This document shows, piece after piece, positions 51,566 to 54,769 of a stretch of DNA of 64,000 bases. The translations under genes and the position numbers were made by a program. The stretch lies in IMG/VR virus record IMGVR_UViG_3300025401_000648; one strand, given 5' to 3'. Numbering within the stretch: position 1 is the stretch's first letter; each line of letters begins with the position of its first letter. The DNA is from a virus. Taxonomy: Duplodnaviria; Caudoviricetes. The notes beneath the pieces are model-generated. The model worked only from the letters and a program-made list of their open reading frames with translations. It was not told where the DNA came from and did not search any database.

Positions 51566-52006
51566 TTAAATTAAGTCCAAGAGCAATTCTAATTTGGCCT
51601 TGACCACTCGATTGTTGAGACTGTTTTTTACCCCCGAATGCAAGGGTTTGGGCCACGCACTGTAACTACACCAAGCATAGCTAGTATGTTCGTCATTTAG
51701 TACAGGAATAAACTCCTTTTCAACAATCAACACATAGGTATTGTATTGAAAATTATCATCGCTGGACACAAATAATTCTAACGGAACTATTTTTTTTATT
51801 TTAGGGGGTTTGCCCACTTCTTCCAATATTTCTCTATGTAGCGCATCAACAGCAGTGACATCGGTGGGTTCTTTTTTGCCACCAACTAGTCCCCAAGTAC
51901 CAGATGTTTTACCTTGATTTCTTAACAGTAATAGAAACCTTTTGGTGTCCTCAGCAAGGAATAGTCCGCCACTACAAATAATTTGATTTAAAGGATTAAC
52001 CGCCAT
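51566..52006 (-). CDS. NUDIX hydrolase
   Basis: GGKKEPTD.TAVDALHREILEEVG Nudix box. Confidence 0.9.
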   Translation of the reverse strand: MAVNPLNQIICSGGLFLAEDTKRFLLLLRNQGKTSGTWGLVGGKKEPTDVTAVDALHREILEEVGKPPKIKKIVPLELFVSSDDNFQYNTYVLIVEKEFIPVLNDEHTSYAWCSYSAWPKPLHSGVKNSLNNRVVKAKLELLLDLI

Positions 52007-53355
52007 GATGCCTTATCGTATACACCATCGTAACTCTTGCCCCACTCGGTGCCGTTCCACATGTATTGTATACCCGTATAAGCATTAGTTATGTATGTTA
52101 CAGTAGTGCTGGCAGCAGAATTGAATATAACACTCCATGATGATCCATTCCACTGTATAATGTCATTGGCATGAGCAACAAATCCTGACCCATCACTGTT
52201 TAACCATGCTGACGGACCTATCACAGGCACAGAGTGTATATCCTCTAAAATTAGATATCTAGTGCCTGCTACTTTGACACTGGGGTTAAATGTATCTGGA
52301 TTAATAACAGCATCCACTGAACCTCTTCCATCAATAATAGTATTTTCAGGTATGGTGGCTGCATCAAAATTTAATATCATCTTTGTTTCATCTGTTGGAC
52401 TTAGAGTCATGAATGCCACAATTTCTAAACCGTTGGGTTTCTTTAATCTTAGTTGACTCAACCCTGCTGTAAATTTTCCTGGATACAAGCCTAATACTGC
52501 GTTCCAAGAAATTGGCGGCTGATTGGCATTTATATCTAAATTAGTAAATGTGTTGGCCTGCAAAGTAGCAACACCATCTAAAACCAGCAAGTTGTAATCA
52601 GTTGGTGTAACGACCACACTGACATCTGGGGTGCCAAATATTTGAGCACCATAACCTGCTTCTAGTCCAGATATCAATCCCTGTGTATCATCAAATACAT
52701 TGGAAATAATTTGTGTAACAATGTTTAGTTGTGTGACATTGGCTGGGGGTGAAATCCATATAGGGCTTTCAAAAACCAATGATGATATATCAATATCTTG
52801 TTCCAGTCCTTGAGGAATTTGTCTGCTGGACCAATTACCTTGATCAGTCAATGTTAACGTGATAAGACTGGTCCAGTCCACATAGTTATCGGTAGTTTGT
52901 AAATTTAAACTAGGATTGAACACCATGGCAATTTGTTCAATTATTTGAAATTTTTGATCAGTATTACTGGTCCAGATATCTGCGGCAAAAGTTACCTTAT
53001 AGGGACTGGGCATGATTCTTTCCACAGTGTAATTATTACCCTGTGTGTTTAGCAAATTCCCATTGGCATCAATAGCACGTTGTTGCAGATTGACTGTACT
53101 GACAAATGTTGGATCCTGTAGTCTAGTGCGATCATACTTCATATCCTTGATGTAGCAGGCAATCAAAGGTGCGCTGGGCACTGTATTTTCACTGTTCTTT
53201 CTCAGTATTTGACCCACTTGTCTACTTAGGTCGCCGTAACGTACTGGTACCTGTGTAATTTTACCTGTGGCATCTTTATAACTGAAATTACTCATCAGTC
53301 GAATAAATTGAGTGATATATCGGCGCAGTTGGCCATCATAAAAATATTGAATAAT
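51988..53355 (-). CDS. gp15: Tail terminator / sheath stabiliser, gp15-like (probable AUU start)
   Basis: The ORF track starts at ATG 53295. The frame stays open upstream through (I)IQYFYDGQLRRYITQFIRL to a TAA at 53368-53370 with no ATG. QVPVRYGD..RQV and ERIMPSPY...IWTSNTDQK.QI.EQI..VFNPS are gp15-type motifs. Confidence 0.7.
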   Translation of the reverse strand: MIQYFYDGQLRRYITQFIRLMSNFSYKDATGKITQVPVRYGDLSRQVGQILRKNSENTVPSAPLIACYIKDMKYDRTRLQDPTFVSTVNLQQRAIDANGNLLNTQGNNYTVERIMPSPYKVTFAADIWTSNTDQKFQIIEQIAMVFNPSLNLQTTDNYVDWTSLITLTLTDQGNWSSRQIPQGLEQDIDISSLVFESPIWISPPANVTQLNIVTQIISNVFDDTQGLISGLEAGYGAQIFGTPDVSVVVTPTDYNLLVLDGVATLQANTFTNLDINANQPPISWNAVLGLYPGKFTAGLSQLRLKKPNGLEIVAFMTLSPTDETKMILNFDAATIPENTIIDGRGSVDAVINPDTFNPSVKVAGTRYLILEDIHSVPVIGPSAWLNSDGSGFVAHANDIIQWNGSSWSVIFNSAASTTVTYITNAYTGIQYMWNGTEWGKSYDGVYDKASWRLIL

Positions 53356-53408
53356 ATTACAACGGCGTTAAGCCGTAGCCTCCTTTAAATTTATAGATAT
53401 ACATATTT

Positions 53409-54626
53409 TTAGAGATCCGCTTTAGGTTTTAATACTTTACTCAATGGTTGACGTTGTGGATATGTTAATCCATCATTCAGTGTTATAGTAGCAGTATTAT
53501 TAATGAATCCAGTTTTTTCTGTTAGTCTAACTTGTTGTCCAGCAAACACTGTACCTGGCGCAACATCACTGCTACTGAAATTATTCATGGTCATTCTAAC
53601 ATCTTTTTGCCATTGTATCCAATGTTTACCATCAAATCTATAAAGTACATTTGGCAAATAGTCTGTTCTTAAAAAGAATTGACCTACCACTGCTCCGCCT
53701 GGAAATTCAATACCAGCGCTAAATGGTGCGCCATCAGGAGGTTGAGTACCACCTCCGTTGGGATAAGAAACATATTCAATCTTGCTGGGACTATGTAGCA
53801 CAATACTGGCATCATAGGCAGGTTGTTCAATACTAGCATCTTGATCCATTGTTGATGCGTCGGCAACGTCTAATAGCCCAGCATCTGTAAGAGGTACGAT
53901 GTACAAAGGGGTAGTGTCAAATCCACTTTGTGGCGCATCCAGTGTTGCTTGGGCGATAATTTGATTATTAATATCAACACTTTGTTGATATGTACTCAGT
54001 AGGTCTCGCAATGTGCTGCCGTCTCCATTACCAGCATCTTGATCAAAGATTTGTTTGTATTCTTGACTATCTACTAGAGGTACACATTTAGCACGTAGTA
54101 AGTGCGGGTACCATGTAGGGCTATATCCAGCCGCTGGACGAGTAACGTCTTGAACAACATAAAATCTTTTTAAGGCCACCAACGATTCGTCTAGTCCATA
54201 CTCGTCTTTTAAGTGAGGTAATTCAATGACATCGCCAGGCATAATTTTTCTAGACAGCGCATCTACAGTGCCGCGTAGGTGAAACATGATAAAAATATTA
54301 TCGTTACTTAAAAACATACCAAACTGACTTAGATTAAAATCCAAATCCTGCATGGTATAGATTCCACGGATAACATAAATGTCAGGAGCATAGTTTCTAT
54401 CTCTATTTTCCATTAAAAGCACATCTTGGATACTTAATTCAGGAATAGGATTAGCACTAGTATCTGGAACTGCCGGGGTAGCAGTCCCCTCTGCTGGATT
54501 TACAGGTCCTAGATATTTGTGAACAAATACATCAGTCCCACCAACTTGGAATTCTTCATTGATAATTCTATCAAGGAATCTAAAATCATTGCCCTTTTCG
54601 GGTTTGTATAAACTTAGACGAGGAAT
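53409..54626 (-). CDS. gp14: Neck / head-closure protein, gp14-like (probable AUU start)
   Basis: (I)PRLSLYKPEKGNDFRF...D.LLMENRDR.Y...G.Y..QD.DF.LSQFG.FL motifs. AGGAG lies 7 nt before ATT at 54626; the ORF track uses TTG 54653. Confidence 0.68.
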   Translation of the reverse strand: MPRLSLYKPEKGNDFRFLDRIINEEFQVGGTDVFVHKYLGPVNPAEGTATPAVPDTSANPIPELSIQDVLLMENRDRNYAPDIYVIRGIYTMQDLDFNLSQFGMFLSNDNIFIMFHLRGTVDALSRKIMPGDVIELPHLKDEYGLDESLVALKRFYVVQDVTRPAAGYSPTWYPHLLRAKCVPLVDSQEYKQIFDQDAGNGDGSTLRDLLSTYQQSVDINNQIIAQATLDAPQSGFDTTPLYIVPLTDAGLLDVADASTMDQDASIEQPAYDASIVLHSPSKIEYVSYPNGGGTQPPDGAPFSAGIEFPGGAVVGQFFLRTDYLPNVLYRFDGKHWIQWQKDVRMTMNNFSSSDVAPGTVFAGQQVRLTEKTGFINNTATITLNDGLTYPQRQPLSKVLKPKADL

Positions 54627-54769
54627 TTTAATTCTCCTTTGACAACCTTGCAATTATCAATATGATGTTTTTCTGTGTAATCGCTGGTTATTCTGCTCTG
54701 TGCGTTGGCAACAATTGCATAATACCAGCGAGTGTACTTGTTGGTCAAAAATGAATTTAGTATTGGCAT
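54614..54769 (-). pseudogene. Truncated HNH homing-endonuclease-like remnant
   Basis: 51-codon ORF MPILNSFLTNKYTRWYYAIVANAQSRITSDYTEKHHI-DNCKVVKGELKFLV. KY..WY..I...A..R...YTEKHHI resembles the N-terminus of phage HNH nucleases, cut off after HHI. Confidence 0.6.

Follow-up and report, generated by a model that had tools for sequence, protein, structure and literature searches.

How does a phage gene begin its translation when no canonical start codon stands where its protein begins? This question is raised by the gp15-like gene, a tail sheath stabiliser or tail completion gene, of an uncultured freshwater jumbo phage whose own record measures 156 kb, and of which we analysed a 64,000-nt stretch, hereafter the window (IMG/VR virus record IMGVR_UViG_3300025401_000648). 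An initial annotation of the window had proposed that this gene starts at an AUU codon reached through a Shine-Dalgarno (SD) sequence that is bridged by a hairpin. Comparison with relatives makes it very probable that gp15 starts at AUU 53352-50 by means of a cassette which is the scar of a homing endonuclease gene, when the insertion of this gene, its deletion, the start codon and the hairpin bridging are taken as one reading. The elements in question are listed below in the direction of transcription.

53409-54653, minus strand: open reading frame (ORF) of the gp14-like neck gene, upstream of the gp15-like gene, with the stop TAA at 53411-09
53357-53404, minus strand: relic mini-ORF of 15 codons, MYIYKFKGGYGLTPL and a stop, whose ATG (53404-02) stands at the original gp15 start position
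53379-53385, minus strand: SD AAGGAGG, which in full-length copies encodes K-E-A of the endonuclease C-terminus KEASV
53360-53378, minus strand: conserved hairpin with core stem 53376-72 paired to 53366-62, closing pair C53378-G53360 and loop UUAAC at 53371-67
53353-53359, minus strand: 7-nt spacer UAAUAUU with the relic stop at 53359-57 and, at 53355-53, the first AUU, which may serve as an alternative start
53350-53352, minus strand: AUU at the methionine position of the family, the likeliest gp15 start, where plain-ATG orthologues have ATG CAA or ATG GAT
51988-53352, minus strand: gp15-like gene, about 454 codons from AUU 53352
53293-53295, minus strand: first in-frame ATG (MSNF), an internal methionine codon and not the start

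Along the minus strand the leader runs from AAAGGAGG, with the SD core GGAGG at 53383-53379, through CU, the stem arm ACGGC (53376-72), the loop UUAAC (53371-67) and the opposite arm GCCGU (53366-62) to UGUAAU, AUU 53355-53, AUU 53352-50 and CAA UAU UUU UAU GAU, and the leader given in the initial annotation is accurate to the base. In the gp15 frame, the in-frame TAA 53370-68 is followed by CGC CGT TGT AAT ATT ATT CAA TAT TTT TAT GAT, and neither ATG, GTG nor TTG occurs between this TAA and ATG 53295, so that the earlier statement that no such codon precedes the segment QYFYDGQLRRY is borne out. In linear distance GGAGG lies 23 nt before AUU 53355-53, likewise as first described, and 26 nt before AUU 53352-50. 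AAGGAGG is among the strongest SD sequences of the genome, in which GGAGG or AAGGAG stands upstream of 5 out of 94 long ORFs.

The N-terminus of the gp15-like protein

The identity of the gene is given by the Pfam family T4-gp15_tss (PF16724), which it matches with 94.9 bits against a cut-off of 25 (E 5.9e-27). Positions 1-211 of this profile align to residues 8-229 of P0001, and the first matched residue is the Y that follows AUU-CAA. In a tblastn search against cultured phages, the homologues of PA5oct, Atu_ph07 and GAP32 align from query residues 2-6; the PA5oct protein begins with MNYFYDEQLRRY, those of Phosso and Atu_ph07 with MALDYFYDGQ and that of GAP32 with MKINYYYDGQ, giving a general N-terminus M(x)(x)[YWF]FYDGQ that is shared by these four phages and dozens of IMG/VR orthologues. 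Most of 80 IMG/VR relatives start with MD[YWF]FYDGQ or MQ[YFW]FYDGQ from an ATG directly after the gp14-like stop, and relatives without an insert have their gp15 ATG 0-5 nt after that stop. The initial annotation had asked whether orthologues begin with MQ(Y/F)FYDGQ, and plain-ATG orthologues indeed start with MQYFYDGQ, MQFFYDGQ or MD[YWF]FYDGQ.

Because the orthologue methionine lies 1-2 codons before the QYFYDGQLRRY motif, ATG 53295 is an internal methionine codon. The 19 codons upstream of it form the most conserved block of the family, traceable back to T4 gp15, and the third-position variation in these codons is synonymous across relatives; judged by this pattern the stretch is coding, and the start of gp15 must therefore lie within the six codons after TAA 53370-68, among which the only near-cognate ones are the two ATT. 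A canonical start is thus absent in frame after the upstream stop at a position where orthologues carry AUG. The conserved Y-D codons of this block also hold an out-of-frame AUGAUG, which opens a 14-codon ORF (53295-53339, minus strand) whose UGA overlaps ATG 53295 as UGAUG; this ORF has no SD and is probably incidental.

A conserved cassette in front of gp15

The leader of the window belongs to a family of about 58 distinct cassettes, 49 of which were aligned (alignment A1) and 9 further ones came from a metagenome scan; the motif pattern used in the search itself required the CGG/CCG core of the hairpin. The layout is GGAGGC, a stem arm, a UUAA(C) loop, the other stem arm, UG, 7 nt and then the codon at the methionine position. 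In a protein-based sample, which was not selected by motif, nine distinct loci including the window share this cassette and have no canonical start. The motif scan of IMG/VR gave 77 loci, all upstream of gp15 homologues, and the scan of metagenome contigs gave 9 new gp15 loci, the only other matches being 7 GC-rich chance ones in unrelated contexts; every copy in phage context thus sits in front of a gp15 homologue.

At the methionine position the 49 cassettes of A1 carry ATC (16), ATT (12), ATA (12), TCG (8) or ATG (1), which is AUC, AUU or AUA (together AUH) in 40 of them. The preceding codon is ATT or ATC in 26 rows, and a tandem AUH as in the window is therefore common. The spacer measures 7 nt in 48/49 cassettes; in locus L105 it has 8 nt, and there gp15 is in frame with the ATT, which is what a frame set by AUH would predict. 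One locus (L128:88-151) is the sole hairpin cassette with ATG at this position, which points to the position being the start site and to ATG being tolerated there.

The ATT of the window was also considered as an assembly error, which the initial annotation had named as a finding that would overturn its proposal. This is ruled out by two independent loci, since L142, a contig of 4.6 kb that stems from a different metagenome and is 99.5% identical to the window, retains ATT ATT, and a locus that is 78% identical in gp15 (L196) retains taatATTATTCAA with ATT ATT. The exact cassette type of the window had no match in metagenome contigs, a set that possibly holds no near-identical records; the cassette was not found among cultured phages, where only distant GIY-YIG relatives appeared, and neither a second cassette nor an intact nuclease copy was found beyond chance in the phage's own 156-kb record. 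That the cassette is conserved for a peptide, GGFGLTPL in zero frame, was rejected, as L010 reads GGNSLTLL yet retains the stem.

A decayed homing endonuclease at the start codon

The source of the cassette becomes visible when one walks upstream from the loop UAA in the gp15 frame, where ORFs of 172-190 amino acids (aa) were found in at least 15 distinct loci. These full-length ORFs begin with M[YH]IYKFTH..RCYIGQTIQ, continue to GKTWKLIDGKRVW near the end and close with KEASV and a stop, and they match the GIY-YIG family PF01541 with 24-34 bits (cut-off 22.6) and SegE_GIY-YIG (PF19835) with 25.6 bits. Their ATG occupies the site that the gp15 ATG has in relatives where the insert is absent, at a distance of 0-5 nt from the gp14-like stop, with which it frequently overlaps as TAATG. 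The correspondence at the 3′ end is exact to the codon: K-E-A is the SD, S-V the 5′ stem arm and the stop codon the UAA of the loop. All loci share one insertion point, and the endonuclease ORF has the reading frame of gp15. The leader is thus what remains of the 3′ end of an endonuclease gene of the GIY-YIG homing type that had entered precisely at the gp15 ATG, homing itself being predicted from these likenesses.

Relatives display a graded decay of this ORF, with lengths of 69, 53, 48, 37 and 32 aa, followed by MHIYKFTHTKEASV, MHIYKFIKEASV and MHIYINKEASV, by the 5-codon minimal ORF MEASV in two loci (L126, L097), and finally by none; in six loci (L093, L099, L138, L094, L091, L006) the cassette persists without a nuclease ORF or its ATG, and in fully decayed loci the gp14 stop abuts GGAGGC. 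Inserts range from 30 to about 600 nt. The window holds a late stage, in which MYIYKF, the N-terminus of a GIY-YIG endonuclease with its GIY motif, is joined to the cassette and the relic stop UAA 53359-57 lies 1 nt before the first AUU. Its insert of 52 nt is 2 nt shorter than that of L095 with the in-frame relic MHIYKFIKEASV, and owing to this shortening the window relic reads through the hairpin in another frame and ends where it does. When gp15 sequences stripped of their N-terminal residues were placed in a tree, alleles with a plain ATG and alleles with a cassette came out interspersed, with 17 changes of state, of which well-supported branches force no fewer than 8; a tight clade uniting L059 (ATG), L054 and L060/L072/L115 is an example of this patchiness. 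The interspersed alleles fit repeated invasion or exchange.

The hairpin between the Shine-Dalgarno and the start

One common helix emerges both from RNAalifold on A1 and from folding five diverse members singly. It is closed by the pair C21-G39 directly 3′ of GGAGG, followed inward by an internal U-U or A-U, then C-G, G-C, G-C and U-A or U-G, and a 5-nt loop. The in-frame UAA 53370-68, with which the endonuclease ends in intact copies, falls within the loop UUAAC of the window. Compensatory stem variants are ACGGC/GCCGU of the window, UCGGU/ACCGA, CAG/CUG (L010) and AUCGG/CCGAU (L006). Within A1, 3/7 pairs are changed on both sides: the outer pair occurs as A-U and as U-A, the inner pair as C-G instead of U-A, and in L010 a G-C has become A-U. 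The G-C core does not vary, partly as an effect of the retrieval, and half of the rows lack pairing at the outer position. As a control of register, the 3′ partner was shifted by 1-3 columns, upon which pairing fell from 79-89% to 22-50% in five of six shifts; in the remaining +3 shift pairing was 70-79% and covariation collapsed as well.

The hairpin is retained in lineages where the rest of the insert is gone, and this retention is the strongest argument for a function, one that is read from comparison. When the helix forms (53379/78-53360/59), the first AUU comes to lie at 3-8 nt and the second at 6-11 nt, ranges that depend on helix extent; the folded hairpin places the SD about 6-8 nt from the AUU codons, and with the helix directly against the SD the consensus start is 6-7 nt away. 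Neither a group I intron nor any other Rfam family turned up, be it in the window region or at four loci whose inserts are full-length. The loop (53367-53371) also holds the UAAC motif found in the operator loops of T4 and RB69 gp43 (PMC3014915), a likeness that is probably coincidence because the UAA is the nuclease stop codon.

Proposed course of events and points against it

Put together, a free-standing GIY-YIG (Seg-like) endonuclease gene would have landed on the gp15 start codon, taking over the ATG after the gp14-like stop. Its 3′ end would have brought along a replacement initiation region made of the SD AAGGAGG, the hairpin with UAA in its loop, the 7-nt spacer and a near-cognate AUH. 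In the phage of the window the nuclease body would then have been deleted, leaving the 15-codon relic and the cassette. Translation of gp15 would proceed mainly from AUU 53352-50, with AUU 53355-53 as a possible co-start, on ribosomes held by the strong SD 26 nt upstream, for which the folded hairpin 53378-53360 would cut the spacing to about 6-8 nt. The AUU is presumed to be decoded by initiator tRNA, and the hairpin bridging presumably delivers the ribosome, instead of or alongside a restart after the relic ORF. The weak codon may hold output low or keep the site immune to the nuclease; low output is plausible for a low-copy virion protein such as gp15, which is present in six copies per T4 virion. 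The AUU and split-SD reading of the initial annotation is in this way supported, as far as comparison goes, by the conserved AUH, the retained hairpin and the folded spacing.

A special initiator tRNA encoded by the phage was rejected, as the 1-72 end of its sole tRNA-Met(CAU) is paired and the three G-C pairs by the anticodon loop are missing. The phage record holds this gene, of elongator or Ile2 type, and a tRNA-Asp(GUC) at G000:C1:5039-5116 and 7826-7900.

Several observations weigh against this reading. Translation of the window relic ORF would melt the hairpin. Covariation in the helix is modest, its invariant CGG/CCG core is partly imposed by the search pattern, and the outer pair is unpaired (U-U) in 26/49 cassettes. 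The window alone folds with a minimum free energy of -8.9 kcal/mol (z -1.4), a value reached equally well by 17 of 200 shuffles, and the fold of 71 nt of the window favours an SD-occluding UACG hairpin with pairing into the coding region, an alternative that differs from the consensus structure; it is thus conservation, and not the fold energy of the window, that seems to raise the hairpin above chance. In addition, A-UCG stands in place of AUH in 7/49 cassettes of A1, and at no fewer than 10 distinct loci, without an in-frame near-cognate codon, so that some members of the family are left unexplained by an AUH start. Two loci (L054, L056) have the SD AAGGAGA, 6 nt and ATC or ATT without a hairpin, in L056 behind a GIY-YIG C-terminus, which indicates that the hairpin is dispensable for AUH use and that the AUH start is not tied to it.

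Variant cassettes at the same site

The A-UCG loci (L022, L107, L135, L194, L091, L111, L060, L072, L115, L197; A1 columns 46-49) are spread over several gp15 clades. In these cassettes an AUC stands one base early and out of the gp15 frame, and several copies have an in-frame UGA just after the hairpin. Their nearest relatives read ATG GAA or ATC GAG (L059, L054, L140), from which it follows that UCG occupies the methionine position and is not an additional serine codon; TCG as a native second codon (MS..) is likewise unsupported, the nearest plain allele L059 starting with ATG GAA. What operates at such a site may be a four-base start, or else a +1 shift made at once.

A different GIY-YIG relic, MYIYKFIQKRRVIANQEGK and a stop, is found about 30 nt upstream of FFYDGQ in L033-L040 and L082/L083, where it supplies AGGAGG, 7 nt and GUG. 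The sequence opened by this GUG, GUG GAU UUU UUU AUG, is out of frame, and MDFFYDGQ would require a -1 slip on U7 or an extra U in the mRNA through polymerase slippage. This GUG-U7 cassette is conserved in two diverged lineages. These variants and the near-total avoidance of ATG suggest that changes at the insertion site may protect it from the nuclease.

The gp14-like gene of the window appears to repeat the pattern with an HNH relic and without a hairpin. Here a 51-codon relic ORF (MPILNS...; 54614-54769, minus strand) extends into AAGGAGA at 54639-33, after which come 6 nt and ATT 54626-24, followed by PRLSLYKPEKG, and the only canonical start of the gene, TTG 54653, lies upstream of this SD.

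Alternative explanations

The most serious alternative retains the same AUU and changes only the route by which ribosomes arrive, and we regard it as possible though less probable than the bridged start, even if on sequence alone a restart is as open a route as bridging. Ribosomes coupled to gp14 would translate the relic from ATG 53404, terminate at 53359-57 and restart 1-4 nt further on, the SD only tethering the 30S subunit after termination and the hairpin being incidental or acting after refolding. The relic ATG does stand at the site of the coupled gp15 ATG of insert-free relatives, the relic stop is 1 nt from the first AUU, the minimal relics of L126 and L097 still hold MEASV and its stop, and an upstream SD aids restart (PMC2268962). 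Furthermore, 14/18 relics with an MxIY start (13/17 distinct) are in frame and end at the loop UAA against an expected 1/3 (p about 3e-4), an excess suggesting that translation up to the cassette matters, although the count is soft since the relics are not independent lineages. At least six lineages, however, have no relic ATG and present only SD, hairpin and AUH straight after the gp14 stop, the relic of the window is out of frame with the loop UAA, and the hairpin is conserved though a translating ribosome would melt it. A further explanation, to which we give a low probability, is that the mobile element, rather than the geometry of translation, is the main reason why the hairpin and the non-AUG codon persist, the altered nuclease target conferring immunity to cleavage and the non-standard decoding being its cost. 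It would account for the avoidance of ATG in 48/49 cassettes of A1, fully decayed ones included, for AUH in the hairpin-less cassettes L054 and L056, and for the other lesions borne by other cassette types at the site (A-UCG, or GTG followed by a U7 that needs a -1 slip), and an endonuclease and a recoding insert have a precedent as a single mobile cassette in the account of Bonocora (2011) given in PMC5009743. Against it stand the ATG-bearing cassette L128 and the first 36 nt of gp15, in which a search for systematic immunising differences between plain and cassette alleles came back with the third base of the start codon only. The broader idea that the cassettes are combined modules of immunity and recoding is slightly less doubtful, if still improbable: each lesion of the nuclease target beside the insertion point, whether AUH for AUG, A-UCG, or one U lost from U8 after GUG, might block re-cleavage and be offset by non-standard decoding, which would include a four-base start (AU-C-G with the C skipped, or a +1 shift at the start codon itself) and a -1 slip two codons after initiation.

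Two further explanations dispense with an AUU start. A frameshift or fusion product would begin at ATG 53404 or at UUG 53362-60 after the hairpin and pass by +1 into the gp15 frame at UUG-UAA-U, which we consider highly improbable. An NUG does follow the hairpin in every cassette with gp15 in its +1 frame, and the window relic ends with UUG UAA directly before the gp15-frame AAU AUU AUU; but the zero frame stops at codon 2, 3 or later depending on the cassette, no common slippery site is shared, the shift in the window would fall on a UUG without a codon for re-pairing, and neither in-frame relics nor ATG-less cassettes can take this route. That U38 and G39 never vary is accounted for by C21-G39, the pair which closes the helix, and a start at the NUG with a +1 shift was rejected. 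Least probable of all is an N-terminally truncated gp15 that starts at ATG 53295 (MSNF), perhaps coupled from the out-of-frame AUGAUG ORF (53339-53295). This ATG is the first canonical start of the frame and the 14-codon ORF terminates upon it in UGAUG, but neither ATG has an SD and the identical arrangement recurs in about 58 distinct relatives. Such a start, which the initial annotation had named as fatal to its own proposal, would also skip the 19 most conserved codons with their synonymous variation back to T4 gp15.

Significance

AUU starts, split SD sequences, free-standing Seg-like endonucleases and endonuclease-linked recoding are each already known. What appears to be new is an endonuclease that lands on a start codon with a portable, structured, non-AUG initiation region which outlives it, and our literature search found no published description of this cassette or of this combination of ingredients. 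If true, the family would be among the largest natural sets of AUU, AUC and AUA starts, with dozens of diverged alleles of one essential gene, and since all AUH alleles would stand behind the same structured split SD, it would offer a test bed for SD strength, helix stacking and the proofreading by initiation factor 3 (IF3). It would further represent a splicing-free way for a homing endonuclease to occupy the start codon of an essential gene, the portable initiation region remaining after nuclease decay as a scar that the phage cannot simply delete. There is also a warning for annotation, as gene callers truncate gp15 at an internal methionine (here by 19-20 codons) or miss the start.

Comparison with known systems

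The closest parallel is found in the split initiation regions of T4 genes 38 and 25, where a hairpin cuts the SD spacing from 22 to 5 nt and from 27 to 11 nt, respectively, with mutational support (Nivinskas 1999; Malys and Nivinskas 2009, as reviewed in PMC3014915). In both systems the linear distance puts the SD out of reach of the start, with 22 and 27 nt in T4 as against 23 and 26 nt here, and an intervening hairpin shortens it, in T4 to 5-11 nt and here, in the predicted fold, to about 6-8 nt. The genes are late virion genes in both cases, and the structure recurs among relatives, here with modest covariation. Unlike the T4 genes, gp15 would start at AUU, AUC or AUA and not at AUG, the loop carries the stop of a former upstream ORF, and the region, known from sequence only, would have been delivered by a mobile element rather than evolved in place.

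For the start codon itself, the reference is AUU initiation in E. coli infC, and also pcnB, which is sensitive to IF3 (Sacerdot 1996, as cited in PMC2268962). IF3 discriminates against non-canonical starts, and an upstream SD favours re-initiation (PMC2268962). As in infC, the near-cognate AUU stands behind a recognisable SD, and low efficiency and IF3 sensitivity are to be expected. In contrast to infC, there is no evidence of autoregulation, the gene is a structural gene of a phage, and the three AUH codons are interchangeable across relatives and often in tandem (26/49).

Regarding the mobile element, T4-type phages harbour free-standing homing endonucleases of the GIY-YIG (seg) and HNH (mob) types (PMC2988022). 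Like these, the SegE-like GIY-YIG ORF described here lies between conserved genes, has a patchy distribution in closely related phages and shares a TAATG overlap with the upstream gene, to which it is thereby coupled in translation. It differs from them in that it inserts at the start codon itself and not in an intergenic gap or mid-gene, usurps the ATG of its host gene, supplies a full replacement initiation region and leaves a scar by graded decay.

Finally, T4 mobA together with the 50-nt bypass insert of gene 60 has been proposed as a protective mobile cassette (Bonocora 2011, as described in PMC5009743), and endonucleases split genes such as nrdA of Aeh1 and gene 43 (PMC2988022). Bypassing of the gene 60 type was rejected for gp15, as the take-off site would be the initiation codon itself, so that no nascent peptide exists, and the inserts are 30 to about 600 nt long; a group I intron with an endonuclease ORF was rejected too, since Rfam gave no ribozyme core in the window region and the four full-length loci and the window insert measures 52 nt. 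The likeness to mobA and gene 60 is that a homing endonuclease travels with a short non-standard decoding element in an adjacent essential gene, and, as in the split genes, the downstream gene piece requires a new route of translation. Whereas gene 60 is recoded by a 50-nt hop, the recoding of gp15 would lie in non-AUG initiation, and whereas other genes are split by their endonucleases, gp15 has left only its ATG on the upstream side.

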